A stretch of DNA of 36,750 nt from Jimgerdemannia flammicorona. Taxonomy: Eukaryota. The stretch spans positions 1 to 36,750 of the forward strand of contig RBNJ01000202.1 in the NCBI GenBank assembly GCA_003990765.1. The letters are read 5' to 3'. Shown piece by piece: positions 3,001 through 31,093 of this stretch. Numbering within the stretch: position 1 is the first letter of the stretch; each line of letters starts with the position of its first letter. Position numbers and translations under genes: made by a program. The notes beneath the pieces are model-generated. The model was not told the origin of the DNA and did not search any database. It was given only the letters and a program-made list of their open reading frames with translations.

Positions 3001-3601
3001 CAATTCTTGTACCCAAGCCATTCATCCAATGTGTGTAAACCCTGGTGTTGCCCCACTGTGTTCTGCCCATATCCCCTAAGGAGCTCAACCTCTCCACCTC
3101 CTCCCATACATCCAAACCTCCACTTCTCCCCCCTGCACTCCTCCCTCCATCAGTCCTGTCTAGATGCTGATCCTGAACCATATTAAAGTCCCCACCAAGA
3201 ACATCAACCCCTTCCTCCAAGAGAATACCCTCCTCCAGCAGCTCCTGAATTCACACAGTCCTCTCACCCCTAACTGCAGGACAGTAGCAAGAACCAACTG
3301 TCACCAACTCCCACCCTGGTCGATGCCAATCTCCCCAGACCAGGCAATCACCCCAGCTCCTGATTCCCCCCAACTCTCCTCTACCCTTCTTTACCAGAAT
3401 CGCCACTTTTCCAAACCAAGCAGCAGCCCCACCCCATTCCCTAGTCCACTCCACCTGATCATCCTTATCCTCACACCACACATTCTGTAGTAAAAAGAGA
3501 TCAGCCTCCAATCCCTTGAGCCAAGTAAAAATGTTCCTATGCCACCCAGATCCCCTTAACCCATTCACATTCAAAGAGAAAATGTTGGTTGTACTGTTCA
3601 T
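1..3601 (-). pseudogene. LINE-A ORF2 (APE endonuclease + reverse transcriptase + Cys/His finger), disrupted
   Basis: MNSTTNIFSLNVNGLR...DLFLLQ, LGGDFN, TRIDWIL, WSDH (APE). PGEDG, QQGFVGGRFIRD, FLDQEKAYD, GVPQGDPLFP, FADD at 1481-1492 (RT). CEEC...TPEHWLGEC. Many stops and frameshifts. Confidence 0.93.
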
Positions 3602-7943: not shown

Positions 7944-9392
7944 TGTAATGTGCCTGGCTCAATTGAGGCAAATTACAAGGTTGGGGGGTTGATGTAGTTT
8001 GGCTTGAACCCATAGTTACTTTGTCAAAAAGCAACAAAATGTTCTATGATTCCTGATGTCCTTGGTGTTTAGTGGTATAATAAGTCAAAGCTGGATATCT
8101 GCAAGTAATTTTCTTATTGAGATGGTTCTCTGGGTATAGTGGCAATTTGTGTGTGAACAGACTTCCTTCTTGGGTCAACTGGGAATTGGTAGAAATTCAT
8201 TTGTAGTGCAATGATCTTCCTTATGCATAATGGTCTGGCAATTTAATAGTTTCCTTCTTGAGCAATGTGATTTCTGTGTGATAATCTTTTGTATAGTGTG
8301 ATGATCTTCATATAGTGTAGGTTCTTTATGCAGAGTGATCTGGTAATTTGGTGGATAACTCAATTTGGTGCAGATTCTCCAAAAGTGATAGGCTTCTTGA
8401 ATGTTGCAGATTCTTCTTACTGGGAATTATACTGGTGGCAGATAACTCACTAACTCAGGCTTTCTGGGAACAATGAATAACTCAGATGGTACAGATAATT
8501 TGGATAACTTGGAGGTCGCACATTCTTTCTGAATTGGTGGCTTTAACTGGGAATATGGATAACTTAAAAACAGCAGATGATGTGGATTCTCCTGAATTAG
8601 CAGGCTTCTGGAAAATAACTTAGATGGTATGGATTCTTCCTGAATCGGTACCTTCAACTGGGAATACTACTTAGATGGCATGGATTCTTCCAGAATTAGT
8701 GAGCTCTTCTGGGAATACAATGGTGTAGATTCTTTCTGAATTGGCGGCTTTAACTGAGAAACATGCTGACAGCTTCTTGGAAAGGGTCTCTTGGCAAAGT
8801 TGCATCAAAGACTGGCTTCATTTGTATGAATGGATCACTGCAAAGTTGTGTCAGAAACTGGCTTGAGCAAGGCAGCTTTCTATTAGGTGGTGGAAACTTG
8901 GGTTCTTCAGGCTTAGTCTGGCAAGCATACCAATAATTCCAAAGGTGGTGAAGTTCTTCCTTGAACTTGGCAGCAAAATCTTCAAGCTTTGTATTGGAAA
9001 GTAGACTGGAGTGGAAAAGGGGACCAATGCTCACAATCTCCTAACAGTGGCTGTAGAGTTTCTCTCAAAGTGTGGTAGACAGACTTGACTTTTGTTTTTG
9101 GATTCAATTTCAGACTGAGGTTTATTCACTCTTGTCTCTGGGGTAATTTATACAAGTTGGTTGCCTTCTGGTTACTACATTGCTAATTATAGATTACTAT
9201 CTATGGCAAGTGTGCAGGTTTTGCATAGATGTATAGGTCTTACACAGGTGTGTAGGTCTTATACAGGTATATCTCATCTGGTAGTCTGGCTATTTATATA
9301 GCTTTCTACAGCAATGGTATCTAGTTACTATGCTATGTGTTCATATCATCTGGCTAAGTTATAATTCAGGTGATATGTTCTGATTTGTCACA
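7944..9392 (-). repeat. 3' LTR (1449 bp)
   Basis: TGTAAT...GTCACA termini; roughly 90% similar by eye to 21838-23322; internal cagattcttcctgaat repeats. Confidence 0.95.
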
Positions 9393-9410: not shown

Positions 9411-9953
9411 TGCTCTGTCCTCAGACTGTCCTTTAGTCATCATCTCAGTATAGGTAAGCATCTTCTACATCAATATCTGTTCCATCATCTTCATCATCTG
9501 TACCATGGTTGCTCCATTTCAAGGGTTCTTCTTCTTCTTCTGGAAATAGAATTTCAACAGCATTGATGATGCTCAGATAGGTGGCTAAGTTCATTCTATA
9601 TACATCCCATTAGGAGAATTGTGCTTGCAATAAGACTGTAGGGTTACATTTGTAAAGGGTACATATAGAGCCTGTCTACAGCAGTGACATATCTTCTTAA
9701 TAGTCCTATAGTGCTTCGGATGTATGTTTGTTCTGGGACTGGGAGGTTCTTTTTTTTATTTTATTTTATTTTTTTTTTTTTATAGTCACTTGGACTCCTT
9801 TATTACGAACTATCTAATATAGTAACAATGAACCACAAACCACTACTAACATCACATAATACACATAAGTATAGTCCTTCAGCCAACTCCTTCCTTTCAT
9901 CTTACCCTATGATTATCTAATATCAGGTACTCTTGACTCCACTGTACAATATC

Positions 9954-12900
9954 CTACATCTTCTTTAAGGCCCCTGGTTGAAGTTGCTTCCCCTGATACC
10001 ACCTCCCCTGAACCACCTCCTGGAGAAGCCACCTCCACTGCTCCACCATCTCTCCAATCCCCATCCATGGGTCCTGTTCAAAAATCCACCACCAATTCAC
10101 TGCCATCAAGACCCAGACCCCCAAAACTCGACCTAGGCCCCCCCATATATCACCAATTTCCCCTACCAGCTGGCACTTGATCACCAGACTGGCCAGATCC
10201 TCTGCCCTTCACCTCTCTGAGCCACAGTAACCTTCCAAACTCCACCAAAACCCTTCCACACCTGGGCAGGCCCCCAGAACATGTTCCGGTGTCTGAACAA
10301 CTCCTCCATCCACCTCATTACACCACTCACAGTCCCAACAGCCATCTATCTCCATCCAGCCTGTCCAATAGCTCAGCATCACATTATGTCTCAAGAATCG
10401 CCACCAAACCACCCAGTACTTGGGTGGTACCATCTTGCATACTGAGGCTCCCCAATTCTAAATTCAAACCCACTCCCAGTCTTCACCAATACCAGTCCTC
10501 TGCCAACCAGGTGGCCATCTCTCCAGAGGGCTGGACCTGATCTACTCCATTGCCTTGATCAGAGAGTACTCCTTCAGACTGTGGCCACCAACATAAAGGT
10601 CTCCCAGTTGCCACCATCTCTGCTCAGGGTTCTCACCCACCTCTATCTCTGGGCCTGCCAGCCTCATGGCCAGCCAGGCCTCTACAATACTCTACCAGAA
10701 CCCCTTAAACCGCAGTCTACCTACACTTTCAACCTAAAGCAAGCCCCCTATATCCTTCCAAACCTCACCATGAGAGCTGAACCAGACCTCCCAATTGTCC
10801 ATGGTCAGCCTGCCCCAACCTTCCTCACCTAGTTCTATCATTCAGCACCCCCACCAACTCCGAAGTACCTTCAGCTGGTGCCTGAAATCCACCAGCCCCA
10901 GGTCTCCATCAGAAGTCCTCATCACCACAGTCTCCCATCCAATCTGCAGATACCTCTCATACCATAACCACCCTTCCACAATCTTCTTCAGCTGCTGCAC
11001 CACCCACCCTGGAAAATCCAGATAATAACCCAGATACCATAGTTTGGGCAGCCAATACACATTCAAGACCACTATCCTGCCAACCAAGGAGAAGCTCCTC
11101 TCTGACCAATCTGTCAGTGCACCTTCCAGCTTCTGAATCAATCCACACCACCACTCCCTTGGCAGAACTGTCCCATACACTGAGAACCAGATATCCAGAT
11201 ACCAAACAGCACTCCCTGTGGCTACCAGTTCCCTGTCCCCCCAGGCCAGCACCAATCCAACCCCTTCTTGTAGGGCTTCTACATCCTCCCGACTACCCAA
11301 CCCTCCCACTATGTCATTCGCAAAGGCACCCAACTACCAGACCACATCTTCCATCTGCAGTCTAGAGAGCCACCTCTTCAGCCATACCAGCAAAGGCCCT
11401 AGAGAAAGTACATAAAGAAGGGGGGAGAGAGGATCCCTCTATGGTACCCCTCACCCCAAGGCAAACTCTGGTCCACACCATCTATTCATTATTACTGCTG
11501 CTCTGCATCCCTGTACCAAGCCCATCAGTTGCCCTGCCTCTACTATACCAAACTCTGCCCTCCTAAGAACAGCCTCCAGGTAACTCTACTGTACTCTGTC
11601 ATAGGCCTTCTCTTGATCCAGAAAGACCATCTGGTCATCTACCTGCCAGCTCCTACAGCTCTCTAAGACATTCTGTACCCAGACAGTACTATCTCTGATC
11701 CGTCTCCCCTTGATAAAGCCTCACTGCTCTTCCCTAACTAGTGCACCAATATACTGCTGCATCCTCCCTGCTAGAATCTTTGACACCAACTTTCTATCCA
11801 CATTCAGCAGCATGATAGGTCACCAATTACACCACACTCATTGATCTCCCTTTTCCTTATATAGAAGAGAAACTAGCCCCAAGAGACCATTGCCAATCCA
11901 GCTACCCTCCTTCAGAACAGCATTGGTCATCTCCACCAACCAGTCACCAAACTTGGTCTTGAACTCCTTCCAGAATTCCCAGAGCAACCCATCCTCCCCA
12001 GGAGATGAATCAGTCTGTATCTTCCTCAGTACTTCCAATACTTCATCTAGAGATACCTTCCCCATGACTGCCTCTCCTATCTTGGGTATCACTTTTACTG
12101 GCCACTTGGTCACCATATTGTTGTTATCCTCCCCAAGCCTGGAACCCTCAGCATGCTCCCCACTATTCTGCCAAAGAGCTTGCCATTGGCTGGATATCTC
12201 CCCTAACATGTCAGCAATCCCAGAGACCTCTACTCCATCTTCATGCAATACTGAGGCCCAACTATATTGTACTCTTCTGGCCTTCAAGACACCAGATAGA
12301 TATCTCGTCGGCCTCTCTCCTTCTTCCAACTGTCTAGCTTGCAGCCTGGCCAGCAGGCCATCTACCACCCTGGTCTCAGACACTCTTAAATCCGCCTGCA
12401 GCTCTGCCACCTCTAACACCAACCAGTGGCACACCTCTTCAGACAAGTTCCCCCTTTCCAAAAGCTTCAATCGCCATTTCAGCCCCTTCTCTACTCTCCT
12501 TTCCTTGTCCTTCTGTTCCTTTCCAGCCACTTCTCCAACATCACACCAGTAAGCTCCAGCCAAATGTTTGAATTTACCCCACCATTCTGCTATCAACTGC
12601 CCTTCATTCCACTATCACATAACTTTCTATCTCATAACCATCACAAAATTGTCCCTCTCCTTCTTCCTCTTGAGTAAGGCCACATTGAGGCACAAGCACC
12701 CTCCACTACTGCCTGCTGCTTGGAATCTACCACAAACCTCCACTCCCCAGTGATCAGACCAGGGGCACCAGTGCACCTCAGCAGTGTCCAGTACATTGCC
12801 CCAGCACTTCACCACTAGCACCCAATCTATTTATATCTCAACCAATGCTGATCCAACTGGATACCACCTGGTGAAAGGTCCCAACTTATCCTCCTATCAT

Positions 12901-13442
12901 TGATGAATGCCATCCACCAAACCTATGTCATGCTCCACCTGAAGCCATTGAGTAAGTCCAGAGGATACTGTGACTCCTGCTCCACCATCAGACCTATCAA
13001 GTGTTCAATCATGCACCATATTGAAGTCCCCCTCCAGAATGTCCAAAGCAACTACCTCCCAACCATCTCATACCTGTCATCTCTCAACCCATTGCTTTTG
13101 CTCTCTGCCAACCACAGGGAGGTAAACTGAGCCAACTATCAAACCATCACCTGCCCCTCCTTTTAGTCTTCCCCAAATCAGTCTGTCACCATAGATCTTT
13201 ACCTCCACCAGCTTGCCTTTGCCTATATCAACCAAGATGCCCACCTGCTTATTCCAACCTGCTCCACCATACCATTCTTTACTCTACATCTCATAGTCTG
13301 ACTCACCATAAGCCTGAACATTCTGAAGAAACATAATATCATATCTCCTGACTTTAAGCCATCTGAAAAGCCTCCATCTTTTAACACCATCCCGCAGTCT
13401 ATTGACATTGATCAATAAAATACATAGATTGTTCATCATCAT
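9954..13442 (-). pseudogene. LINE-B ORF2 (APE + RT + Cys/His finger), disrupted
   Basis: INVNxLRD, GDFN, WSDH, SPGEDG, FLDQEKAYD, FAND (decayed FADD) at 11313-11324, SLVGRIVVLN, CEWC...TPEHVLGAC. Confidence 0.92.
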
Positions 13443-13454
13443 TAAGGAAATTGT

Positions 13455-15303
13455 TTAAAGCTCAGCTGGGACTACCACCACTTTCTCAGCCCTTCCTCTA
13501 ATGATCTCTCACTGGTCCTCGCAAATTGCCCTCCAGATTCAATCACCATTGGCACTGCTGCAGAAAAGGTCTACTCTTTCTGTTGCCACCTTCCTGATGT
13601 CAGCCATTCTGCTCATCATATCCTTCATCATCCAGAAGGGTGGCTACCATTGCTGTCACCAGCTTAGGCCCCTGCATCACTACATTGAGAAATCCTTCCC
13701 ATGTCTCCTGAGATCCATGAAACACATCCACTTCCTTGATATCTTCCTCTGCCAGCTCCTCAAGCACCACCTGATACCAGCTCTCTGCTGTCATCACCAG
13801 GGGCCCAGAAGTCGAAGGCCTGGGGGTCCTGCTCAGCTCCTATAGTTGCTCCCTGTCTGCTGACACATCAGAAGCCACATTTATAGCTCATCCTTCTCCA
13901 CAACTTTCTCCAAATGAATTACCTCACCAGCTTCTGGGCACTCTCAATGAACATTCACCACCCCAGCCATATGGGTGTCCTCCACCTGAGTCTCTGGCAC
14001 TACTTCAATATCAGCCTCAAAACCTCCTTCACTAACCTCCTCCTTATCCACCCACTTTCCTCTCACCAGCACATGTGCCGAGCTCTCTACACCACCCAGC
14101 TGGGAGAAGGACACCTCTGCCACCTCCACTCCTTCCATATGATTCTTGGCTGCCTCTACTCTTGCCTCCTCTTCCACTGCTGCCCCTTGAAGGGCTGCCT
14201 GCAGATGCTCCCAGTTCTCTTTCCTCTACCTCTTCCACTTGCCATCTGCCTGGATCCAGACCCAATCCTTGGCATACTCCTCCCACTTCCTCTTTCACAG
14301 CTCCTTGGCAGCCTCTCTCTCCTCCAGAGCAATTGCCAACTTGTCCTCCTCTGGTTCTGCTCTCTTTCTCCTCTACACCTTGCACTCTTGCCCCCCAATT
14401 CTAATTCCCTCAGGCCAATTGCGGCCCAGCCCAGTCACCTCCTTGCCTTCCAGTCACAGCATCACCTCACAGTTGCTATTCCTCAACTTGGTGCCCTCCC
14501 AGAACATGAACCCGAAGTCCACCATCTCACTATATCCACCCAGTGCCTCAACCACCATCTCCTTGGTCTCCTGTCTGCCCAGGGTTAGCAATCCTTCCAC
14601 CACCAGCCAAACAGCATGTGGATCTCACCTCAGACACCTTGCCATCCCAATCTGGACACCCTTGACTATCATCCCTTTCTCCAGTGCCTTCACCATTGCA
14701 TCCTCCTCCACAAATCCAATCTCTACAGCCTCTGCCGAAGGGATGAAATTCAGAGATTCTGACCCAGCCACTTTCTCTCCCACCAGTCTCAGAACCTCTC
14801 TCACTGACATTGCCAATCCCAGGAAGTTTGCTGAGATTGCCCACATCAATACCAATTTGTAGAAGAAGGGCCTCACCACCAACTTGCCTGTCCCAGTTGC
14901 CAGTATCACCTTTCTCTTGGTCTCTGAAACACCTGTAGTTGTCCCACCAGGCACAGCTGCACCACCAGCAGTCCTCTCCCCAGCCACCTGCCTAGCCACA
15001 GAAGAACCAGTCCCCATCAGACCCCTGTCTCCTGCCTGCCACCTGACCCATCACCTGACTCATCACCTGACCCCTCCTCCTGTCAACACTACATCCCCCC
15101 TGTCCCACCCCCATGGGCCTAGCTGCAGCCCTCCTATTTCCAACCACCATATACCAGGCCTCGATCCCACCAGTCCTCCCCTGCCCACCAGCCCCTCCTG
15201 CAGCCATACCAGCCCCTGCAGTAGCTGCAAAACTCTTGGGAATACCCAGACCAGGCCTCCTCCTCTCCAGATGCTTAGAGCTAGAGGAATCTTGACTAGC
15301 CAT
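13455..15303 (-). pseudogene. LINE-B ORF1, disrupted
   Basis: ORFs 14992-15303, 14625-15017 and 13600-13797 are collinear with LINE-A ORF1 (e.g. VAGSESLNFI vs VAGAASVKFL; LLDDEGY vs FLEEEGY). Confidence 0.8.
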
Positions 15304-15675
15304 ATCACCAAAACTTGATGGTTTTCCTTGAAACTTACTGTGCCTTGTAGGTAGACTCCTGCTGCATGATATATACCAGTATGTTCGAAATAAAAACTTG
15401 AAAACATGTTGTCTTTCACTGAAAGATGCCTGTGTGGCTTAGCTTACTCTGAGTGGTTCAAGCAAAAGAAGTCTGGGACTGGGAGGTTCTACAATTATTC
15501 TCTAATTGCATAGTGGGCCTGGAGTTGGTGGACCTGTAGCAATCATCTGGCCAGGACAAGATTCTCTTAATGAATCTGGATCTTCTAGAGAGTATTCCCA
15601 TTGACTTCTCAGAATTGGGGTAGGGGAACTGGCAGTGATTAAAATGAGCTGAGAACAAGAGTCTGGAGACAGTTG

Positions 15676-16700
15676 TCAACTCTCTGATTCATGATGTGGG
15701 GGAAGGTATAACTTGAGGCGATTGATATATACTGGTGTCTTCAGGGTTCATCCATCCATACTTCTTAAATAGATGTTGGTTCCTCTGATGTTATATACAA
15801 GATAAGGTCCTTCCCATTTGGGTTCCAATTTGGTAGCAAAATTTGTTTCAATCATGCTTCTCCAACTAGTACTTGATCTCCAATCTTGATCTCCTGGTCC
15901 TTCTGTTTCTAATTATAATACTTCTTTTGTCTTTCTTGGACTTTGATAATCTGACCTCAGGCTTGATTATGTAACTGTTCGCCTTTTTGAGGAGGTCTCT
16001 GAGATTCTCATAGTCAGCAGTTCTGGTTTTCTTAGCAAATATCATTTCAAATGACTTTTGTTTGGTGGAGACAGCAGGGGTGTTCCAAATTTCCCATAGG
16101 ATCTCAGGTACACAGAGGTCCCAATTGGTAGGATTGACTCAGACAAGTCCTTTCTTGATGGTCTGGTTCATTCTTTCTGTCATGCCATTGGTCTGAGGGT
16201 GGTATGATGTGGTCCATTTGAGGTAGATCTTGTGAATTTGGGAATAACTTATAATTATGTTGTTGATGAATTCTGTGCCTCAGTCAGAGATGAGTTCTTC
16301 TGGGAGTCCATATCTGAGTGTGAGTCTATGGAGAAGGCCTACAATGGTTAAGACATCTGCAATTTCCATTAGGAAAGCCTTGAGGCACTTGGTCAGATAT
16401 TCTACAAATACAAGAATATATTTGTTTCTTCTCAGTATAACTGGTAGGGGTCTAATTACATCTATTCTCCATCTCTGAAAGATATTGTCTGGTAGTGCAA
16501 TTGGTTGCAATGGTGCTTGATAGTTCTTCCTTCCTTGGTACTTTTGGCAGGTATCACATTTCTTAAGTATATTCTGGACTTATATTCTGAGGTTGGGCCA
16601 ATGTTGGTGTGTTGTTCACAGCTTCTCTTCTATATTCACCTGTCTCTGGTGGGCTTTCTGATATTCTTTTTGAATGAGATCTTCTTATGTCTTGATGGTT
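15676..16700 (-). pseudogene. Gypsy integrase (HHCC, D-D-E core, GPY/F), no chromodomain
   Basis: CDTCQ; FQRWRIDVI, YGLPEELISD*GTEF, YHPQTNGMTERMN; KLEPKWEGPY...INRLKLY then a stop at 15676. Confidence 0.93.
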
Positions 16701-16752: not shown

Positions 16753-17332
16753 TTAGGGCTGGCAGGAAAGTACATCAACATTGTTGTGAGCTTTCTCTGC
16801 TTTGTGGATGATGGTGATTTTGTAATCCTGATGGATAAGAATCCAGTGGGCTAGGATTCTGGTGGGTTCCTTGCAGTTGGATTTCATAGAATCCTGTGAA
16901 AAGGTCCATACTGCTGAAGTATTTGGTATCTTGTAACTGATCCAAAAGGTCATTGATTCTAGGCAAAGGATAGGCATTCTTTTTAGTAACTGAATTGAAT
17001 TTCCTGTAATCTACACAAAGTCTCCATCCTCCTTTCTTTGGTACAATAAGAATAGGGCTTGTCCAGGGGCTAGTAGAGGCTCAGATGACTCTATTGTCTA
17101 AGAGTTCTTAAATATGATCCTTTTCAAATATTTTCAAGTGATGGGATATTCTATAGGGTTTCTGCCAGATGAGTGTTGCATTCCCTGTATTTATGCTATA
17201 GTGATATAATAGATTGTATAGCAGATTGCCATAATCATTGGTGAAGATATCTTGATATTTGTTGAGAAGTTCTACTAGTTGTTGCTGTTGTTGAGGTGTC
17301 AATTCTTCTCTAATATTGGTGGAAGGCTTCAC
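16753..17332 (-). pseudogene. Gypsy RT N-terminal part fused to the RNase H C-terminal end (internal deletion)
   Basis: QKPYR, SPWTSPILIVPKKGGWRLCVDYRK, AYPLPRINDLL, FSSMDLFTGFYEI, then directly ILAHWIL...IIHKAEKAHNNVDVLS. Confidence 0.92.
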
Positions 17333-17736: not shown

Positions 17737-18090
17737 TCTGAGCTTCCAAATCCTCTGGCTTGTCTTGTTCCTTCAGTTAGTTTGGAAACTCCTTGTAATT
17801 GTGGGGTCTTAACCTTCATGAAGACTGCTTGGGCAATCTTCTGTCCTCTAATAATTCGGTGCCATTCTGTACTACTGTTGTATAGAATGACCTTGATTTC
17901 ACCTGTATATCCTGGGTCAATAGTTTCTCCTTCTATGGTTATTCCTTATCTGGCAAGTCCAGACCTTGAGGTCAGTTAGATGTGAGCTCCTTGGGGTGGC
18001 TGTATGGCTAGTCCAGTTCTGATTATATGTTTTTTCAGGCTTGATGGATTCATCCTCCAGACTGTGAAGATCATACCCTATATCTTCTGG
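17737..18090 (-). pseudogene. Trimeric dUTPase domain within pol
   Basis: All five motifs readable: IGYDL, TSRSGLA, TIDPGYTGEIKVIL, GQKIAQ, RQARGFGSSD; two stops and a frameshift. Confidence 0.93.
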
Positions 18091-19439
18091 GTGGGCTTTG
18101 GTTGGGAGTTTGGCCTTGGGGTGTAGCAGGGCATACTGTACAACATTCTTGCTGAGCTTGGGCTATCCTTGGGCTGAGGCTCTACTATCAGGGAGCCTCT
18201 AAGCTCTGAGGTTAAGGTGTGGCCATCTGGCTCCAGTGGAGGGGTCTTGGAGGTAGTTGATCCTCTTCTTCCTGTAGGGTCTAGGGCTTCCATGAAGTTG
18301 GTTGTATCTACTACCCATCCTTAGCAAGTTGCATGTCTGATGAGAGCTAGGATATCTTCTCCTAAATCATAGATCTTGAGAGTTCTTCTTCCTGGCTTCT
18401 TGGTCTTACTTTTTTAGATCTGACCTCTACTGTCTCCTCTCTTTAAAGTATAGATTGTAATATCATGACTGAGGTAAATCTTTTGATGTCTGCAGTCTCA
18501 GCAGTCAGGGTATCTTCCATGGTTGCAATATCCCATTACTCGAAAATGATATTTCCAGCTGTTTATCTCTTGTTGTCTTGGGAATTAGTATCCATCTTGA
18601 TCATAAGTTGGGAGAAGGGTAGACAAGGGGTATACTTCTGTCCAGGTGAAGAGGCCTTGTCCTCTGAATCGGCTTTGCAACTTAGTGGTAACTTCTTGAA
18701 AAGTAGTTGACTGTGCAACTGTTTTTGGGAGTTCTGGTCTCTAGGGTCTATGTCTCTCCTGTTGGTTTAGTAGATGGCACTGGTAGCAGTAGTCTCAGGG
18801 AGAGTAGAAGACCATTTGATGTGGACATCTTCCTAGCTGAAAAGCCTTTTCTTGGTGAGTTTCTTTCTTGGGAGTGATGATAATTATACTGAGTCCTTCT
18901 TCCACATTCCAAGAGTCATTGTCTTCAGGTGGTGTCCAGTGAGAGTCATCCCAGGGAATGAGTTTGTGGACTTCTTCCTCTTCAGGTACTTCTTGGTCAG
19001 GAACTTCTTTTTCCTCAGATGATTCTTGTCCCCAAATTGCTTGCACTTCTGCAGCTTTGGCTGCAGGTGTTTCTGGAGTATGTCTGCATTTCTTTTTCTT
19101 CTTTCTGCACTCTGAGCAGGCTGTGCCAGGCAATTTTCTTGTTCCCATGATCTTAGAGGAATGCTCAGGACACTTGTATCTCTTGAGGCATGTAGGGAAT
19201 CCTTTGATTTCTCTTGCAATGGCTCTAATAGTGATAGAGATAGTATTCTTGGCTCACATGTTGTCTTCTGGTCTATCATCTACTAGGTTAATTCAGGGAT
19301 TGAGTCTGGGATCATTTCCATCTTCAGATTCTTCTTCTTTCTCTATAGTAGACTCTTCACTGCTGGCATATTCTTCCTGAATAGTGACCTTCTTCTTCTT
19401 CTTTGATTGCTCATAGCTAGTCACCTTAACTCTGTACTT

Positions 19440-19770
19440 CTTGCCTCAGTAGTCAAACTTCAGTACTTGTTGACTGATGTCAACAACTGCATTCATTTCC
19501 TTCATCTAGTTGGTGGCAAGAATTATGTCATAGGTGACAGCTTCAGTGACAACAGCTTTGGGGATGGAAAACTGATTGTATTCCAGAGAAATGGTGATGT
19601 TTTTCACTTCTCCAAGGGGTTGAGTTTGGGCTCCATCTGCTACTATGATGCTGAGGTTGGATGGTCCATCAATGGGCCATTGGAGGGTGTCCAGGAATCA
19701 TTTAGCAATGATACAGGTAGTGGCTCCTGTGTCTATGAGGATTTTCGCCTTTTGTCCTCCAATATCTCCA
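19440..19770 (-). pseudogene. Gypsy aspartic protease
   Basis: LIDTGATTCII (DTG at 19725-19733); boundaries approximate. Confidence 0.88.
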
Positions 19771-20377
19771 TATAGGTAGGTGCTGACATGTCTTTCAGCT
19801 GCTTGAACAGGGATGGAAACTGGTTCTTGCTGTGGGATTGGAACTCAGCCAGTGCTAGACCTGGTGGTTCTCAGCAATTTGTTTCAGACTCTAGCTGGGG
19901 TCAGTTGCAGGAACTGCAGAAGAGGGACTTCCATCTTGGCCTCTTGAATCTTCTGCCAGGCTTTATTATAAATGTCTCTAGGCATGGTCTTCAGGGTGTA
20001 CTTCTTCTTGGGCTTTGAAGCAGCAGGTTCTCATTCCCTCTTGTTCCATTTCTTCATCCTCTGGTAGTAGCTCATTTGTTTTGGGGATAAAAGGTGAGAG
20101 GGTTTGGGGAGGTATTTCTACCTGCTCCTCTTCATGTTCTTCATATTCTTCTTGGATGATTCTTCTGCTGATATTCCTGGATGGCCTCCCTACAGGTCTC
20201 TTCCTTTTCTCTGCTGGATATACTGTTTTCCAAGTGATAACCTTCTAGGTCACTGTAGTCTTCACTATTGCTTGCTTCCTCGAAATCTTCAATAGGATGG
20301 GCTTCAGTCTTCTTGTCCTGAGTGTCATTCCTTCAGTTTGATGATTCTGAGTCCCTTTGGTCACTTTTTTTATTGTC

Positions 20378-21805
20378 ACATTCAGTAGCATAGTGTCCAA
20401 ATTGTCCACAGTGGAAGCATTGGACCTGGGCTCTATCTTGGATAGGATATCTTCTTTCTTCTTACTGGTAGTTTCTGTTATCTCTTAGTAGATAACCTTG
20501 GCTCCTCTGTGGTGGGTATCCTCTGTTGTCTTGGTAGCTTTGATTTTTATGTATGGTGAGTTTTTCAATCTGTCCAACCAATCAGTCCAACTTGGAGCTG
20601 AGGTCTTGGATTTCACTTCTGTTCTTCTTTCCATCTTTGGCTGGCCTTCTTTCTTTGGATCTTTCTTGTCCTTGAAGGAGTCCTTGTAGGGTTTTGACTA
20701 GGATATCTTCTTTATCTTCTTTCTTGTTATGATCACTCCAGGTAGTTTCTTGTCTGACATCAAAGAATCCTTGGGCTATATCTACTTGCTCTTCAGACCT
20801 TCTGATGCCTAGGGTGCAGACATGCTGGGCAATGTTTGGGGGAATTCTATTCATGAAGGTCATTGGATCTATGATGTCCTGGTTGGTGGCATTGAATCCA
20901 GCAGCATGCATTCTCTTCTAGATTCTTGTGAAGAAGGCTCTGGGTGATTCTCTGAGATTTATCTTCATCCTTATAATGGATTCTTGAGCCTTGTGATGGG
21001 TTTCATTTCCTGCATACTTTTCAATGAGCCAGTGGACCATGGCCACATATTCAAGCTCATCAGACATTGCTGCTTGTATCTGTCTTGCTAGTTCTGAATC
21101 TCAGTTATTTGCTATTCAATGGAAAATTCTTCTGGCTGGTTCTCTGAGCTGAGCCTTATAGATGGCAATTTTTCTTTCATCTGAGAGATTCCTTAGAGCT
21201 GCAATTCCTTCAATTCCATCAAGGAATTCTCTGGGATCTTTTTCTGGATATCCTGCAAAGGTTGGCAATGAGGTGGCCATTTCATCATCACTTTCTTCTG
21301 ATTCTGGTTCTGGTTCAGATTCTGATTCTGATTCACTTTCTGAGCTGTCACTGGAGATGAGGGTGCTTGGGTATCCTGAGGATAGTGTTCTGGATCTTGG
21401 ATGAAGTGGAATGAGCCTAGGTATTCTTATAGGAGCTACTTCCAACTCTGCAAGGGCTTGGGGTAAAGGTTCTATTAGTGAGATTAATAGGACTGGTATG
21501 GGGTGTCTGGCTGTAAGATCTCTGGCTTGTATAATAAGATCTTCTAGTTCTTATACAAGTTCTTCAAAATCTCCAATAGGGTTGCCTGTATTGTCTGATT
21601 GATCTGGTTTGAGATTTCAGGCTGTACTGCCTTCTGCTTCTGGTTGGGATCCTTCTGATGCTAGATAGTTGGCAAGTCTTGATGTGATTACTTCTCTTCC
21701 TGTCCAGATGTTGGTAATAACTGGTTCTCCTGTAGTAGCAGAGATTGGTGTTGTATCAAATATATCTAGTTTGACTGTGGGTTCTTATGAGCTAAAAAGT
21801 CACAT
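20378..21805 (-). pseudogene. Gypsy gag with long N-terminal extension and CCHC knuckle
   Basis: The ATG at 21805 is in frame with LPTFAGYPEKDPREFL (capsid start) and CFHCGQFGHYATEC (20378-20419); the in-frame stops I read are transition-type. Confidence 0.88.
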
Positions 21806-21817
21806 TGATTTGAAATC

Positions 21818-21835
21818 TTCCCAGTTGAGCCCCCA
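21818..21835 (-). promoter_or_regulatory. Primer-binding site, tRNA-Pro type
   Basis: TGGGGGCTCAACTGGGAA, 2 nt from the 5' LTR. Restoring two CpGs gives TGGGGGCTCGACCGGGAA, close to the MLV tRNA-Pro PBS TGGGGGCTCGTCCGGGAT. Confidence 0.8.
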
Positions 21836-21837
21836 AA

Positions 21838-23322
21838 TATAATGTGCCTGGCTCAATGGAGGCAAATTACAAGGTTGGAGAGTTGATGTAGTTTGGCTTG
21901 AGCCCCCAGTTACTTTGTCAAAAAGCAACAAAATGTTCTATAATTCCTGATGTCCTTGGTGTTTAGTGGTATAATAGTCAAAGTTGGATATCTGTGAGTG
22001 ATTTCCTTATTGGGACAGTTCTCTGGGTATAGCAGCGATTTGTGTGTGAATGGACTTCCTTCTTGGGTCAACTGGGAATTGGTAGAAATTTGTATGTAGC
22101 ATGACAATCTTCCTTATGTATAATGGTCTGGCAATTTAATGGTTTCCTTCTTGAGCAGTGGAAATCTCTAAAAGTATGTAATTTCTGCATGACAATCTTT
22201 TGTATAGTGGGACAATCTTTGTGTAGTATGGGTTCCTTATGCTGAGTGATCTGGTAATTTGGCAGATAACTCAATTTGGTACAGATTCTCCAAAAGTAGT
22301 GGGCTTCTTAAATGTTGCAGATTCTTCTTACTGGGAATTATACTAGCAGTAGATAATTTAATAACTCAGACTTACTGGGAATAACAAATAACTCAGATGG
22401 CATGGATAATTCAGATAACTTAGAGGTTGCAGATTCTTCCTGAATCAGCAGCTTCAACTGGAAATGTTGATAACTTGAAAATGGTAGATGATGTGGATTC
22501 TCCTGAATTGGCAGGCTTCTGGGAAATAACTCAGATGGCACAGATTCTTCCTGAATCAGTGGCTTCAACTAAGAATACTACTCAGATGGTACAGATTCTT
22601 TCTGAATCAATGGGCTCTTCTGGGAATGCAATAGTACAGATTCTTCCTAAATTTGCAGCTTAAACTGGGAAATATACTGGTGGCTTCTTGGAAAGGGTCT
22701 CTTGACAAAGTTGCATCAAAGACTGGCTTTGTTTGTTCAAATGGATCACTGTGAAGTTGCATCAGAAACTGACTTGAGCAAGACAGCTTTCTATTAGGTG
22801 GCAGAAACTTGAGTTCTTCAGGCTTAGTCTGGCAAGCATACTAATAATTCCAAAGGTGGCAAAGTTCTTCCTTGAACTTGGTGGCAAAATCTTCAAGCTT
22901 TGTATTAGAAAGTGGACTGGAGTGGAAAATGGGACCAATGCTCACAATCTCCTAACAGTGGCTGTAGAATTCCTCTCAAAGTATGGTAAGCAGACTTAAC
23001 TTTTGCTTTTGGATTCAATTTCAGACTGAGGTTTATTCACTCTTGTCTTTGGGGTAATTTATACAAGTTGGTTGCCTTCTGGTTACTATGTTGCTAATTA
23101 TAAATTACTATTTATTGTAAGTGTACAGGTTTTGCACAGATGTATAGATCTTACATAGATGTGTAGATCTTACACAGGTATGTAGATCTTACACAGGTAT
23201 ACCTCATCTGGTAGTCTGGCTATTTATACAGCTTTCCACAGCAATGGTTGCTGGTTACTATGCTATGTGTTCATGTCATCTGGCTAAGTTATAATTTGGG
23301 TGGCATGTTCTGATTTATCACA
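21838..23322 (-). repeat. 5' LTR (1485 bp)
   Basis: Homologous to 7944-9392; has an extra 18 bp block and an extra 20 bp tgtagatcttacacagg unit. Confidence 0.95.
23032..23063 (-). promoter_or_regulatory. Putative LTR TATA box and AATAAA signal (also at 9121-9152)
   Basis: Minus strand TATAAAT followed about 20 nt later by AATAAA, present in both LTRs. Confidence 0.5.
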
Positions 23323-24180: not shown

Positions 24181-25746
24181 AATATTTATTAAAATATTAG
24201 AATAAAATAAAGAGTAAAAGAATACTCAGAAGTCTGTATCACTCTATCCTCTTATCTGATATTAAGATACTCCTCACACTCCAAGGTACCTCCTTCTACT
24301 AAATATCCTAACCAATAGTTCAATATCACTGGAGTAGAGGAGGAGGGCCCAGCAAGAGCTATGGAAGCAAATCCAGAGCCAGTGTCAAAGTGAACAGAAG
24401 ATATGTGGAAGAGTGTGTATAAGGGGGATAAATAAAGAATGTAACCAAAAATGCATCAGCCATTTATTGCTATATAAAAATGCAGTCCTTATATACAAAA
24501 TATAATATCCCAAAAGTAAGGATATGCCACAACTCAGAGCAAACCAAATTAGATACTGCATGACTGCTGGAGATAATAGAGATAAAGAGGGAGCCTATCT
24601 CAGTTGTAGAATAAAAATCACAAACAAATACAAACAAAACAAATCCAAATCGAGATTAAAAAACATCTACAGACTCTGGAGGTATGAGCACAAGTGAGGG
24701 GTGAGACCAAAATAGAGCAAGCTACAGTGAGCCTGAGTAAAGCAAGGGGCTGAAGGTAGCAGAGGGGAGCAGAGTGAAGGCTGAGACCCCAGAGTGAGCA
24801 CAAGACCCCAGAGGGGGCAAGAATGTTTTTTAATCCTCTCTGGAGGAACTGAAGACACCAGAAGGTGACAAAAACACAAAATTAGATTGATGAATTAGAG
24901 AAGAAACAGAAGGAAGATGTAAACAAGCAATCAGAGAGTATTAGAGAAGAGATGAAAGTCCATGGCATGAAAGAGAAGAGCACAGGACAGTATCAGAGCA
25001 TTGTGCAACCCAGTGAGCATGATCAAATGGTATGACAAAAATCAGAGGTGGGAAGGAAGAGGGGATACAGATTGAGTAAGGAGGGAGAGAGGAGAGAGAG
25101 GGGGGGTAATGAGAAGAGAGAAGAGAAGAGTAAACAACAGACCATTTAATAGAAGTAAGCAGATCATGAATGATTGAAATAGGGTAGGCATGATAATGGA
25201 CCATGAAGTTGCTAAGAACCCAAACAGCAGACACTCAATGAGAATGACAGTGAAGGAGGAGGGCCCAGCAAGAGCCATGAGAGCGAACCCAGAGCCAGAG
25301 TCAAAGTGAATAGATGATATGTAGAAGAGTATATATAAGGGAGATGAATAAAGAACATAACTGAATTTACATCAGCTGTTTATTACCATCTAAAAATGTG
25401 GTCCTTATATATAAAATATGATATTCCAAAAGGGAGGACATGCCACAACTTGGGGCAAACTGAATTAAGAACCACATAACTACTGGAGATAAGCAGAGAT
25501 AAAGAGGGAGCCAATCCCAGTTGTAGGATAAAATCACAAACAAATACAAATAAAAAAAATCCAAATTAAGATTAAAAAACATCCACAGATACTGGAGGAG
25601 TGAGTGCAAGTGAGGAGTGAGGCTGAAATAGAGCAAGCTGCAGTAAGCCCAAGCAAAGTGAGGGGCCAAAGACAGTAGAGGAGAGCAGAGTGAAGGCTGA
25701 GACTCTGGAGTGAGCATGAGACCCCAGAGGGGGCAAGGATGTTTTT

Positions 25747-27811
25747 TTAATCTTTTCTGAAAGAACTGGAGGCACCAGAAGGTAACAAAAATATAAAACA
25801 AGAGTGATGAATTAGAGAAGTAATAGAGTGTATTATATAGAGGATAGACAGGTGTATTAATAAAGGATGGAGTCCATAAGACTATAGAGAAGTAATAGAA
25901 GGAAGATATGAATAAGCAATTAGAGGGCATCAGAGAAGAGATGAAAGTCTATGGCATAAAAGAGAAGAGAACAGGACAGTATCAGAGTATTGTGCAATCC
26001 AGCAAGTATGATCAAATGGTATGACAAGAATCAGAGGTGGGAAGGAAGAGGGGGTATGGAGTGGATAAGGGGGGAGGGAGGGAAGGGAGGGGAGATAATG
26101 AGGAGAGAGAAGGGAAGAGTGAACAACACACCATTTGACAGAAGTAAGCAGATCATGAACAATAGAAATAGGATAGGTATGATGATGGACCACAACGTTG
26201 CCAAGAACCTAAACAGTAGACACCCAATCAGAATGATATAAGCAGTATAATGCAAGATGACAAACCTCACCATAAATACATTCAAGAAGAGTGCAATGAG
26301 GATGGTTGAAACAGAAGTCAGAGAACTGTTGGATTGAGGGAAATGAGAATAAACAATAGTTTAGAAGGGAGAAAGAGAAATGGAAAGGTCTAAAAAGAGA
26401 ATACTGGTTATACTGCTCACCTAAGTAATAGAATGATGGAGAGGGTAGACAATACAGAATATACTAGGAATATCAATGTCAGCAATAGCAAGAACAATAA
26501 AGTCATCAATGTATCAGTAAAAGAAGATATTGCCAGCCCAGAACACAATGGAAAGAGGTGAAGAAGGATCACATATTGCACAAAGTTCATGGGCCAGGCC
26601 AATGTGATTGGCAAGGGTTGGGGTACAATTTGTTTCTATGGTAATATCAGAAGTCTGATGAAAAGAGCCAAGGGCTGACTCAAAATAGTTGGAGTCACAG
26701 ATGAGGAGTATAAGCTCAAAGATAGAAGCCAATGAGACTAGAGAATCCATAGGAAAAACAATAGTATCTGAGAAGTGAAGACAATTATCAATCTCATCAA
26801 AATGAATAGTAGTGTAGAAGGAAGAGAAATCACCAGAGGCCAAATGGGAAAAACAGTTAACAGGCACAATTGTGGAGTAGAGAAGGGTGAGCTCCTGAGT
26901 ATTATGAAGAATTGTATACTCAGGCCCAAGATGGTATTGTAGAACAGCCATTCAAGAGAGGAAGAAGTAGGACAACTACTTCAAAATCTCAGTGATAAGA
27001 GAACTAAAAGCAGTCATAATGGGATGCTAAGCCAAAATGGACTTGTGGACTTTGGGAAGAGTATAGAAAACCAGAAGACAAATATCTAGCAAGAACAAAG
27101 AGTCTAGGAAGAAGTTAAAAATAGGGTTTGTAAATGGAGAATCTGAAAGCAATCTGGCATGAGTCAGAGAAACCCAAAGAAGAGAGAGAACCTCATCCAA
27201 TCCAAGAGCACTAGGCTCATAAGCCATGGCTCAAAGGTAGGGCAGAAAGGCCATCAAGGTAGAGTAACTTAGGAATAAGTTCAAAATCCTGATTCTTATC
27301 AGTAACTATAAGTAGATGGAAAGGCAATTGCTTGACTGATTTAAGCATGGTATGCCTGATATAGTCTGAAACTAAGCAAGAGTGAGTGTGTCCAGGAACA
27401 GACAGCAAGCAGGCCATATAATAGAATATACAGTATGAAGAGACATTGGGAGGAGAGACCTAATTACTAGGAATATAATAGCAAGGGGGTATCTCATCAT
27501 AATCCTCAAAGAAGATAGCAAGGTCAAGAGCATGACAAAAGTATACCAGATGAGCTGAATTGGTGAAGGAGAATTGTGAGAGAGTCAATGAAGGAAGGAT
27601 TCATGGAAAGGGTAAAGACTTGAAGGGGAGAAAGGGGGTAGTCAGCTAAAGAAAAAGGAGAAGATAAAGTATTCTAAGAGAAGAATAAACCCAAAAGTTT
27701 GGAATAAGCAACTGAGAAAGGTGAAGAGGGAACAGTATGAGGAACCACTCAGGGCACACTAGAAGTAATTATGGGATCTGAGAAGGAACCAGGACACTAG
27801 GGGAGAATCAT
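25747..27811 (-). pseudogene. PLE reverse transcriptase ORF, disrupted
   Basis: LSMNPSF, YIPSN*VSPP, IVTDKN, FYTLPKVHK, HPIM, SGDFSSFYTTI, NYFE...QTSDITIETNCTPTLAN, FY[R]YIDD (~26500-26525), FLDL, thumb HP...YGE, PLIAY...SL, stop at 25747. Confidence 0.88.
25828..25885 (+). mobile_element. ~57 bp 5'-truncated LINE tail inserted in the PLE
   Basis: Duplication (t)agagaagtaataga at 25813-25827 and 25885-25899; absent from the paralogous PLE copy near 24895; ends aataaag...gagtccataagactat like LINE-B. Confidence 0.8.
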
Positions 27812-27824
27812 GCTGGGGGAAAGT

Positions 27825-28984
27825 TTAAGAGTGGGAGGCCTTCTCCTTCCCTCTGACTTTTTTTGAAGGTGGCAAGCCTGATGAGCAGGAACATACCCTG
27901 TCAGAGTGCCAGACCTTATAGCCACAGGCTTTCATACAGCCCTTACATTCAGGGGCATGGGTAGAGGAGGCAGAGGAGGACCTAGTGAAGGAGATAGAGG
28001 GAGAGTAAGCAGCTGAAGGGGCATCAGTGCAAGAGACACCACCATAGGAGCAGACAGACTTGGCTGAGTGCCAATAGGCATAGTGGAGGTGACCAGAGCA
28101 TACAGCATAGGGCCAAGCTCTGATGGGGCAAGAACCAAGTTGGAAGCCACACTTGGGGGCAGGGGGGATAGAGGAGGAGGCCTTGACAGGGGAGGGGGAC
28201 CAAGAAGAGGCTGACAAAGCCTTGTTGGGCTTAGTAGGGGTCTTGGCAGGGGCCTTAGCAGTGGTAGCAGCAAAGGAATGAACCTCAGCATGAGCAGCAG
28301 CATGAGCTTTGGCATAGATGACCTCAGAGACCAAAACCTCAGAGAAGGTAAGTAGGAGAGCAGTGGTGGCAGTGTGAGCAGCAGCAGTAGCATGTGACAT
28401 TTTCTCATAAAGATGAGTGACAAAGGAGGTGCTGGCAAGGCGAAAGCAATGAACAGCATCAATGTTGGTGGCAGCAGATGGAATGTCTTGGATGGTAAAG
28501 CCACAGAAAGGGGCAGTATCTGTGAAGTAGAATGAGGTGAGGGCCACAAAGAAGACACAGCATAGTAGAAGGAGGTAGAAGCAGTAGTAGCAGTAGCAGT
28601 GACAGTATCAGTGGTGGCAAGCTTAGTGGCAGCAGTGGCAGCATGAACCTCTTTAGAGAGGACTTGGTGGTAGACCTCAGGAAGAATAGAGTAGTGGATG
28701 GCAGGTGGAGTAATGATATTGATGTCATAGTGAAGATGAGTCTCCTTGGCAGAGAGGGCTAGAACTGGCCAGAACTGAGAGAGGAGTGGATGACCAGACA
28801 GATGAAGGTCTAGAGGGAGGAAAAGAATGGCAGATGAGATATAGGTCTCAAATGAGATAGTGATGGAGATGAAAGCAGGAGAAGGAGGAGGAGGAAGAAC
28901 CTTGTCCATAATCTCATCAATGGAGGTAGAGGCCCTGGGGGCAGATGGTATAGCAGTAGAGGAGGAGGGCCCAGTAGGAGCTAT
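27825..28984 (-). pseudogene. PLE ORF1 (Ala/Pro/Ser-rich, C-terminal Cys/His cluster and basic tail), one frameshift near 28550
   Basis: ORFs 27932-28909 and 27825-28547. The start lies inside the pLTR: ATA at 28984 is in frame, and the ATG is intact in the copies near 25278 and 29867. Confidence 0.7.
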
Positions 28985-30967
28985 TTGAGTGAATCCAGAG
29001 CCAGTTTCAAAGTGAACAAAAGATATATGAAAGAGTGTGTATAAGGGGGATGAATAAAAAATGTAACTGAATTTGTATCAGCTATTTATTGCTATGTACA
29101 AATATGGTCCTTATATATAAAATATGAGGTCCCAAAAGGAAGGATGTGCCACAACTTAGGGTGAACCAAATTAGGAACCACATGACTATCAGAGATAAGT
29201 GGAGATAAAGAGAGAGCCAATCCCAGTTGTAGGATAAAAATTACAAACAAATACAAACAAAACAAATCCAAATCAAGATTAAAAAACATCCACAGACCCT
29301 GGAGGGGTGAGCATGAGTAAGGGGTGAGACCAAAATAGAGTGAGCCACAGTGAGCCTGAGCAAAGCAAGGGGCTGAAGGCAGCAGAGGGGAGTAGAGTGA
29401 AGGCTGAGACCTCAGAGCAAGTGTGAGACTCTAGAGGGGGCAAAGATGTTTTTGAATCTTGATTTGGATTTGTTTTGTTTGTGTTTGTTTGTGATTTTTA
29501 TCCTGTAACTGAGATTGGCTCTCTCTTTATCTCCACTTATCTCCAGTGGTCATATAGTTCCTAATTCAGTTCACCTGGAGTTGTGGTGCATCCTCCCTTT
29601 TGGGACATCATATTTTATATATAAGGATTGCATTTTTACATAGCAATAAATAGCTGATGCATTTTTGGTTATATTCTTTATTCATCCCCCTTATATATGC
29701 TCTTCCATATATCTTCTGTTCACTTTGACACTGGCTCTGGGTTCACTCCCATAGCTCCCACTGGGCTCTCCTCCTTTACTGTAGTTATGTTCTTTGTTTG
29801 TCCCCCTTATATACACTCTTATATATGTCTTCCATTCACTTTGACACTGGCTCTGGGTTCACTCCCATGGCTTCTGCTGGGTCCTCCTCCTCAACAGGAC
29901 ATCTTCTGGCTCTCCTTCAGTGCCATCAGAGAAAGAAAGTTACCAGATATATTACAGAGAGAGAACTGTACCTCCCACACCCTCTGCATAAGGAGCACTC
30001 ACTCTCAGCCCCTCAACTCACTAACTTACTTCAGCCACCAAGCTCTCAAGTGGTATTGATACTTGGTAAAGTCTACCAGACCTAGTTCTCACTGGTCTAC
30101 TAGTAATATCAATATCTCTCAGCCAATCTGACTATACTATTCTACCCATATCTAGGTTCTGGTTATCTTTAATAGTCTCTTGACCACCTATATCAGGAAG
30201 TCTAAGTGATACCCCAGATATCTAACTTAGACAGCTAATATATATTCAACACCATCACTCTTCCAATCAGAGAGATATATTGGCCACTCCATCCTAGGAG
30301 AGTATTCTCCCACTCAATTAGCTTCTGCTCCCATTTTTTCTGAAGTAATAGGGATCTATATACTGAGAAGTAAATCTCCAGATAATGGACTATCTCTTCT
30401 GCTAGAACAACTGTTCCAATTATATCCCCACTTACTATTACTCTATCTAATATCAGAGTCTCTCACTTATACTAGTTAAGCTTAGTATCTGAGTATCCCT
30501 CATACTATTCCACTACCTTCAGTACTGCCATATTCTTTATAGAGCTTGGCCCAACTACTATATTATTATCAAAGACCCCCATCTTCCAATTCACCCCCAG
30601 AATATTCAACCCCCCTACCTTGTACCTAATTCTATCTAACTAAGGCTCCGGGGAGAGGGTATAAAGAATTGGTGACAGTGGATCCCTCTGAGACACTTCT
30701 CTATTCAGGGGAAATAAATCTCCCCTGTACCTATTTACTAGAATAGTCACTCAACTCCCCTCCAACAGACTAATTAAAGATTATCTAAACCCTAGAGAAG
30801 CTCTCATACACTTCAGCACCCCCTCTAGTCATACTTGCTGAACTCTATCATAGGTCTTCTCCTGGTTCAGAAATACTAGCCAACTATCTACCCCTATAGT
30901 ATATACTCCTTTAATGATATCATATACTCATACTATTTCATCTCTTATCAAATAACCTCTGACAAAG

Positions 30968-31093
30968 AGGGGTCTATGTGAGATTGGGTGAAGGGTACAT
31001 TGTTATCTTTATATTAATAAAACTTAGATTGGATGATAGTTGGTAATAAAAGTAGAAGTCTAAGTAACTATAAAAAATAAAAAATAAAAATAA
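30968..31093 (+). mobile_element. 126 bp 5'-truncated LINE tail with A-rich tail inserted in LINE-C
   Basis: 18 bp TSD aaataacctctgacaaag at 30950-30967 and 31094-31111; 3' end resembles the LINE-B 3' UTR. Confidence 0.88.

Follow-up and report, generated by a model that had tools for sequence, protein, structure and literature searches.

A Cys/His-rich region between protease and dUTPase in a decayed Ty3/gypsy element of Jimgerdemannia flammicorona, a candidate zinc-binding accessory part of pol

Introduction

Retroviruses and retrotransposons have acquired dUTPase on several occasions, and to our knowledge only for betaretroviruses is it understood how the enzyme is retained where reverse transcription takes place. 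Here we analyze a 36,750-nucleotide stretch of the Jimgerdemannia flammicorona genome (assembly GCA_003990765.1, contig RBNJ01000202.1, positions 1 to 36,750; the whole stretch is called the window below). Its minus strand carries a decayed Ty3/gypsy retrotransposon in which a long Cys/His-rich region, the spacer, separates the aspartic protease from a dUTPase. An earlier sequence-only reading of the window had proposed that this region is an uncharacterised zinc-binding accessory protein inside the polyprotein. We compared the spacer with its relatives in protein and metagenome collections, with protein family and structure databases, and with predicted structures.

Results

A decayed Ty3/gypsy element with a dUTPase between protease and reverse transcriptase

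The element comprises the following features, listed from its 5' end to its 3' end:

21840..23322, minus strand: 5' long terminal repeat (LTR) of the Ty3/gypsy element; starts TGTGA and ends ..ACATTATA; direct repeat with 7946-9392
20372..20422, minus strand: zinc knuckle of gag, CCHC type, CFHCGQFGHYATEC; matched by Pfam zf-CCHC at E 8.1e-05 with 23 bits (cut-off 20.8)
19461..19757, minus strand: aspartic protease with DTG at 19733-19725 and three internal stops; Pfam gag-asp_proteas E 4.5e-07, Asp_protease_2 E 1.2e-06, RVP_2 E 6.4e-04
18118..19460, minus strand: protease-dUTPase spacer, made up of an acidic/basic linker, motif 1, an acidic stretch with WDD..W, candidate finger 1, a helical stretch, candidate finger 2 and an ALDPxGxRG block
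17739..18117, minus strand: dUTPase, its frame disrupted by stops and by a shift near 18030; Pfam dUTPase
16868..17044, minus strand: reverse transcriptase, N-terminal part only; Pfam RVT_1 E 1.1e-06, profile positions 1-86 of 205
16196..16612, minus strand: integrase, comprising the H2C2 zinc domain and the catalytic core; the Pfam matches Integrase_H2C2 (E 6.5e-04) and rve (E 6.7e-05) score under their curated cut-offs
9500..15450 (bounds approximate), minus strand: nested non-LTR retrotransposon resembling a long interspersed nuclear element (LINE), in the 3' part of the gypsy element; RVT_1 E 8.7e-10 at ~11828-11271
7946..9392, minus strand: 3' LTR of the gypsy element, with the purine tract AGTGGGGGCTGA just before it

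The order of domains, with a CCHC gag followed by protease, dUTPase, part of a reverse transcriptase and an integrase after the reverse transcriptase, fits Ty3/gypsy (Metaviridae) elements, and paired terminal repeats flank the coding region. The LTRs start with TGTGA and end in ..ACA or ..ATA, and the element is flanked by TATAT and ATATA, which lie in AT-rich DNA and, compared as a possible target-site duplication, do not repeat exactly. The sequence directly after the 5' LTR (21790-21840, minus strand), TTTGGGGGCTCAACTGGG..., is similar to the purine tract that precedes the 3' LTR, and does not look like an obvious tRNA primer-binding site. The frame of the gag CCHC knuckle differs from that of pol. 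The dUTPase is of the trimeric type and sits between the protease (19757-19461) and the reverse transcriptase (17044-16868), as in other dUTPase-bearing gypsy elements; its main Pfam match (E 6.3e-18) covers 18038-17700, and its N-terminal part is matched in another frame (E 0.0053).

This copy is an old, dead fossil, because its LTRs are 12% apart, the core of its reverse transcriptase and its RNase H are deleted, a LINE-like element is nested within it and its CpG dinucleotides are nearly gone. A direct-repeat search of the window paired the two LTRs at 85.6% identity across 1484 columns, and in an alignment of the two, 1275 positions match, transitions number 159, transversions 20 and gap columns 39. 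The catalytic YxDD region is lost in the deletion (16780-17050, minus strand). Within ~250 nucleotides downstream of the truncated reverse transcriptase come the last part of RNase H and the start of the integrase, the integrase zinc domain itself ~250 nucleotides downstream. The nested LINE-like element is marked by a jump in composition (GC 0.47-0.53, GC skew ~ -0.45). The observed/expected ratio of CpG is 0.00-0.10 in all 11 window segments measured, retroelements and AT-rich spacers alike, which points to very heavy CpG-directed C-to-T decay of this genome region. TpG and CpA are in excess within the elements of the window.

One reading frame carries three Cys/His motifs between protease and dUTPase

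Pfam matches place the end of the protease at ~19461 and the start of the dUTPase at ~18117, and therefore the spacer at ~19460-18118, or ~447 codons. The ~430-codon insert proposed earlier is thus close to the measured length; its lower bound of 18090 overruns by a few codons into the dUTPase, which is in another frame. A single frame of the minus strand, shared with the protease DTG, runs free of shifts between 19802 and 18141; its 554 codons include 11 stops, eight of them in the spacer. The dUTPase begins in a different frame from that of the spacer, with one shift near 18150-18165 and a second near 18030. The three motifs that the sequence-only reading had assigned to this frame are all present at the positions it gave, and together with the blocks around them they form four features; P0002 is an intact relative described below:

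19086..19172, minus strand: motif 1, CPEH-x14-CSEC-x6-C, reading CPEH-x14-CSECRKKKKKC from 19172 to 19086; lineage-specific and not kept in deep relatives
18771..18965, minus strand: conserved block 1, IPWDD.HW, acidic W.., ETHQEKAFQLGRC.H...FYSP...C..C, which includes candidate finger 1 (motif 2, CPH-x10-CYQC with one stop inside) at 18827-18777
18492..18527, minus strand: candidate finger 2 (motif 3), GYC-N-H-G..C-x-x-C, reading CNHGRYPDC[stop]DC from 18527 to 18492 with one stop inside; aligned to GYCECG..NCFYC of P0002
18261..18287, minus strand: conserved block 3, ALDPTGRRG, just ahead of the dUTPase; aligned to AIDPVGLRG of P0002, giving the pattern A(L/I)DP.G.RG

The clustering of Cys and His in the window spacer exceeds chance. 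Ten of the 12 Cys in the 420-residue translation fall inside the three motifs, and none of 20000 residue shuffles reached the three matches to C-x(1,2)-[HC]-x(4,16)-C-x2-C that the spacer contains. The motifs differ from the retroviral CCHC spacing (C-x2-C-x4-H-x4-C) and instead have the form C-x(1,2)-H-x(5-14)-C-x2-C.

The spacer is present in near copies and in an intact distant relative

We asked how far the spacer extends beyond the window copy. At 80% likeness or more, the stretch is matched by 435 contigs from a single soil-metagenome run (X1), which together cover all 30 bins, motif 1 included; 35 of them are at least 99% alike, 97 are at 95-99%, 170 at 90-95% and 133 below 90%. These contigs come from one study, and the source organism itself may be in the sample. 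Among sequencing runs, the stretch was listed for one soil-metagenome study only (share 0.10 of the sampled words) and for no RNA run. The metagenome copies have one or two additional letters at 18026-18028, by the frameshift in the window's dUTPase.

Of the 180 positions at which the majority of contigs differs from the window copy, 40 were listed, and 33 of these lie within 18141-19802. Among these 33 listed differences, 23 are C>T or G>A in the window copy and three are transversions; 12 are synonymous, 20 non-synonymous and one falls within a stop. The decay is transition-driven. None of the 33 hits a ligand codon, and the four that fall inside motif 1 all spare its Cys and His codons. The sequence-only reading had noted that every stop in the frame is a single transition, which is true and also uninformative, because any stop codon lies one transition from some sense codon.

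A protein search with the window spacer gave five matches at E ≤ 0.001 among 1,835,955,588 representative proteins. The most extensive is P0002, a protein of 1179 residues (library E 5.9e-07, query residues 126-381 against P0002 587-847). It is encoded by an uninterrupted open reading frame (ORF) that contains a zf-CCHC knuckle (169-184), a protease (~392-502), 394 residues free of Pfam matches and a dUTPase (897-1021, E 1.3e-32). The order gag, protease, spacer, dUTPase is thus common to P0002 and the window element. One reading frame contains the candidate fingers and, downstream of them, the dUTPase. Pairwise, the window spacer is 24% identical to P0002 591-846 over 276 columns (E 4e-14), the protease 38% identical over 153 residues and the dUTPase 48% identical over 105 residues. 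Three further matches (P0003, P0004 and P0005) are short fragments of the acidic patch and finger-1 block, and the fifth (P0006) is a fragment of the protease end and linker that is 86% identical and has Trp and Arg opposite two of the window's protease stops.

Other searches yielded little. A search for longer proteins with the window spacer scored no match, and one for proteins of near length with the P0002 spacer returned only P0002 itself. Pattern searches of metagenome contigs with alignment A2 and with P0001 gave 368 and 443 matches, those of viral contigs 54 and those of genome contigs 72, and none of these was confirmed. The ESM Atlas gave no usable match for P0002 600-860 or P0005 55-133. 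As judged by sequence comparison, the spacer is a family-conserved coding part of the polyprotein: the sequence-only reading had left open that the insert might be private to this copy, and both the 435 contigs and the intact 1179-residue relative with the same order of parts show that it is not.

Two Cys/His modules keep their candidate ligands, and motif 1 does not

Alignment of the window spacer with its deep relatives reveals three conserved blocks. Block 1 follows the pattern (I/V)(P/A)WDDP.W, then an acidic run with Trp, then ETHQE(K/R)AF.LGRC.H...FYSP...C..C, and in an alignment of the window with P0002 and P0005 has 18 invariant columns, the C, H, C and C of finger 1 among them. The four candidate ligands of finger 1 (C-x-H-x10-C-x2-C) are therefore kept in all three sequences that span it. 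Block 2, common to the window and P0002, reads DGY...F...GYC.[H/C]G...C..C...S.D, and the ligand positions of finger 2 (C-x-[H/C]...C-x2-C) are kept in both sequences, with ligand 2 a His in one and a Cys in the other. This swap would preserve a potential metal ligand. In P0002, seven of the eight spacer Cys belong to the two motifs, a motif count that 2 of 20000 shuffles attained. Moreover, the orthologous segments of finger 1 and of finger 2 each outscore all 2000 of 2000 shuffles.

Motif 1 behaves differently. It falls in ~45 alignment columns missing from P0002, and the matching part of P0005 is basic and free of Cys. Motif 1 is present in the near metagenome copies, and is either a younger addition of the window's sub-lineage or chance. 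Of the three motifs of the sequence-only reading, motifs 2 and 3 are thus conserved, with all candidate ligands kept in relatives that are 24-38% identical, and motif 1 is not supported.

Motif 1 had also been noted for its agreement with the first half of a fungal Zn2Cys6 cluster, and one could extend this to a reading in which motif 1 is a fungal Zn2Cys6 DNA-binding domain, or in which the whole block comes from a zinc-finger gene taken up from the host or from a foreign element nested in the copy. The C-x2-C-x6-C spacing is literally present (19118-19086) and is common to Zn2Cys6 clusters (PF00172), and Pfam Zn_clus gives a weak match (E 0.048). At 14.2 bits, however, this match stays below the cut-off of 21, and it extends over profile positions 1-16 of 39. 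Of the six Cys of Zn2Cys6 the first three are present, no second Cys triplet follows, and the motif is missing in P0002 and P0005. Against a captured gene, all five library matches look like pieces of retroelement polyproteins and none like a cellular protein. A nested-element origin of the spacer we reject: the edges of the block are free of repeats and frame breaks, and P0002 has the same architecture. Overall, this group of explanations is largely refuted, and we consider it very improbable.

The spacer matches no described family, and finger 1 is its confidently predicted part

We found no Pfam family beyond noise at E up to 10 for the spacer of the window, P0002 or P0005. For zf-CCHC in particular, neither the window spacer nor that of P0002 gave a match at E up to 10, the gag knuckle being the one match. 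A profile search of Protein Data Bank (PDB) sequences with the spacer yielded nothing beyond N-termini of dUTPases and noise, at E of 0.18 or more. On the possibility that the insert is a known nested element or a described domain, also raised in the sequence-only reading, there are no edge repeats or frame breaks that would mark a nested element, and these Pfam and PDB searches gave no described family.

An AlphaFold model of the P0002 spacer, built from a six-row alignment, has a mean predicted local distance difference test (pLDDT) score of 51.5 and is confident at residues 141-190 only, which correspond to finger 1 (block means 82-92). In the model of P0005, residues 91-120 reach block means of 89-91. 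Finger 1 is thus the sole confident non-trivial region in each of two separate AlphaFold runs. In P0005, a helix at 90-97 is followed by bridge residues 99 and 105 around C100-x-H102, and C113 and C116 stand at the start of a helix spanning 114-131. In treble-clef fingers, one zinc is held by two ligands of a knuckle or beta-hairpin together with two that sit in the opening turn of the next helix. The predicted layout of finger 1, with a tight turn and a helix start supplying the ligands, would resemble this type.

Fold searches did not assign the spacer to a known fold. With the 419-residue P0002 model, the best match had a VIA Z of 4.4 (root mean square deviation 2.6, 54 residues aligned) and lay on the helical hairpin 223-295, and Foldseek gave no match below E 1.4. 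With the P0005 model, all 50 matches listed lay on a poly-Gln helix (1-45) at Z of at most 4.3, dominated by unrelated helices.

The most conserved feature of the spacer other than its Cys residues is the acidic, Trp-rich patch, in which W613, D615 and W627 are invariant, and this patch lies in a region predicted to be disordered. Short linear binding motifs typically sit in disordered regions, and many treble-clef fingers bind proteins. These points fit a spacer that acts as a protein-protein interaction or regulatory region, recruiting a host factor or a part of Gag or Pol, or timing processing by the protease. No known partner and no family match points that way, however, and the basic runs beside the fingers, like the position just ahead of an enzyme of the nucleotide pool, suit nucleic-acid binding equally well; we regard the interaction reading as unlikely.

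Other features of the window

Two decayed LINE-like elements, at 1000-3583 and at ~9500-15450 (both minus strand; the second is the nested element above), retain matches to endonuclease (Exo_endo_phos E 1.7e-11) and reverse transcriptase (RVT_1 E 5e-25 and 8.7e-10). Both have ~50% GC and a GC skew of ~ -0.45 on the plus strand, their sense strand being G-rich and C-poor. A further frame on the minus strand at 30500-32780 is heavily ridden with stops and begins FLNINKL..., like the start of the other LINE endonucleases of the window, and matched no Pfam family at E 0.001.

Between 24300 and 29900 lies a repeat family of ~500-980 base pairs (24338-25247 against 25254-26236 at 77%, and 24333-24835 against 28955-29458 at 85%), with inverted partial copies at 29445-29791. 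These repeats surround a purine-rich block in which GC skew and AT skew are both ~ +0.3 to +0.39 on the plus strand. Pfam found no match in the six frames of 26200-28960. One minus-strand frame of 24300-29900 contains a reverse-transcriptase-like pair, ..YIDDF.. and ..GDFSSFY.., and the block is perhaps another dead retroelement.

Discussion

The reading that we favor, with moderate confidence, is that the stretch is a decayed, lineage-specific accessory region of pol in a dUTPase-bearing Ty3/gypsy family, and that it contains two zinc-binding modules, which flexible acidic and basic linkers would connect to the dUTPase downstream. Because its Cys/His clusters are kept in distant relatives and no described family matches it, the spacer is probably an undescribed zinc-binding accessory part. 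The core of the original proposal, an uncharacterised accessory part of the polyprotein, agrees with what we find, namely a family-conserved coding block to which no described family corresponds.

In this family, protease and dUTPase stand ~400 residues apart. The region between them begins with a Ser/Glu/Asp-rich and Lys-rich linker and continues through an acidic-aromatic patch (WDDP.W ... W) and the two modules to A[IL]DP.G.RG and the dUTPase. Each of the two four-ligand modules, C-x-H-x10-C-x2-C and C-x-[H/C]-x5-11-C-x2-C, would have a helix ahead of it, and we take them to be zinc fingers of a knuckle-plus-helix, treble-clef-like type. Zinc binding by the two modules is probable, and somewhat more so than the reading as a whole; their fold class is suggested by the models. 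The likeliest role of the fingers would be to attach to nucleic acid or to a partner within the particle, by which they could hold the dUTPase at the reverse-transcription complex, and an enzyme tethered in this way on the template or in the particle would remove dUTP at the site of cDNA synthesis. By analogy such a tether is conceivable, and we put it forward tentatively, as the doubtful part of the proposal.

Several observations weigh against the favored reading. The spacer evolves faster than its neighbors (24% identity, compared to 38% for the protease and 48% for the dUTPase), and conservation rests on very few sequences, since no more than two deep relatives extend across finger 1 and a single one across finger 2. 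Pfam, PDB sequence and fold searches, the last dominated by unrelated helices, gave no zinc-finger family or fold match for the spacer. Most of the P0002 spacer is predicted to be disordered (216 of 419 residues with pLDDT below 50), and confidence for finger 2 is middling, the helices and strands in block 2 having a pLDDT of 55-68. Fingers 1 and 2 resemble each other weakly (one of the cross comparisons was reached by 4 of 2000 shuffles, the remaining three by 311, 294 and 786 of 2000), so that a common origin of the two is only a hint from their sequences. The window's own copy is incapable of function. Finally, the spacer may be an N-terminal extension of the dUTPase or a separate protein, both of which are compatible with the sequence.

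Part of this evidence, the 24% identity and mostly low pLDDT together with the small number of relatives (five matches) and the lack of a known domain, would also fit another account. There, the Cys/His clusters are only structural or are not metal sites at all, and the spacer is a tolerated, fast-evolving linker with islands kept for folding or RNA-level reasons. This account must contend with two motifs that keep all of their ligands between lineages that differ at three quarters of other positions, with a ligand position at which His is exchanged for Cys, with spacer Cys that lie nearly all inside motifs, and with an intact 1179-residue ORF that spans the spacer. We judge it decidedly unlikely, and less likely than the protein-interaction reading above.

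How does the window family with its putative zinc-binding region compare with known dUTPase-bearing elements? A dUTPase between protease and reverse transcriptase is known in basidiomycete elements, and PosPlaTy3-5 of Postia placenta and elements of Phanerochaete and Tuber share the order gag, protease, dUTPase, reverse transcriptase and integrase with the window element (PMC2864245). Compared by description only, elements of the PosPlaTy3-5 type differ in that the passages on them, figures and supplements aside, mention no long Cys-rich region between protease and dUTPase. Full-text literature searches likewise gave no description of such a block, although the figures and supplements of the same paper (Figure 3 and the supplementary tables) may draw one unnamed. 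Thus, dUTPase-bearing gypsy elements are already in print, and as far as these sources go the Cys-rich block between protease and dUTPase is the new part.

In bdelloid rotifers, the elements Juno, Vesta and TelKA also resemble the window element in carrying a dUTPase between protease and reverse transcriptase, and Juno pairs its dUTPase with an extra zinc knuckle (PMC5408684), which makes it a further precedent for the tether beside the viral one below. By description, the Juno knuckle follows the dUTPase, whereas the two C-x-H...C-x2-C candidate fingers of the window family precede it, past a long acidic linker. Mason-Pfizer monkey virus has a fusion of nucleocapsid (NC) and dUTPase, in which a zinc-finger module lies covalently upstream of the dUTPase via a flexible linker, and this fusion serves as our model for the tether role, by analogy only (PMC1802613). 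The betaretroviral NC carries CCHC knuckles (C-x2-C-x4-H-x4-C), is derived from gag by frameshifting and is unrelated to the candidate fingers of the window; the window element has its own gag CCHC knuckle plus a different, unclassified finger type within pol.

A bolder proposal goes further. The two C-x-[H/C]...C-x2-C modules might constitute a new zinc-finger family that is confined to one clade of dUTPase gypsy elements and arose by internal duplication, forming a second, pol-encoded and nucleocapsid-like module that delivers dUTPase to nascent cDNA, evolved independently of the betaretroviral NC-dUTPase and convergent with it. We consider this full version rather improbable, more so than the tether on its own.

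For the window alone the practical weight is small, as it holds a fossil copy within a nest of decayed retroelements. The accessory domains of retroelement polyproteins are informative about how these elements solve problems of replication, here the problem of uracil in cDNA. If the proposal is true, this gypsy family would represent a second, independent way to keep dUTPase at reverse transcription, and its modules would add a new small domain family to the databases.

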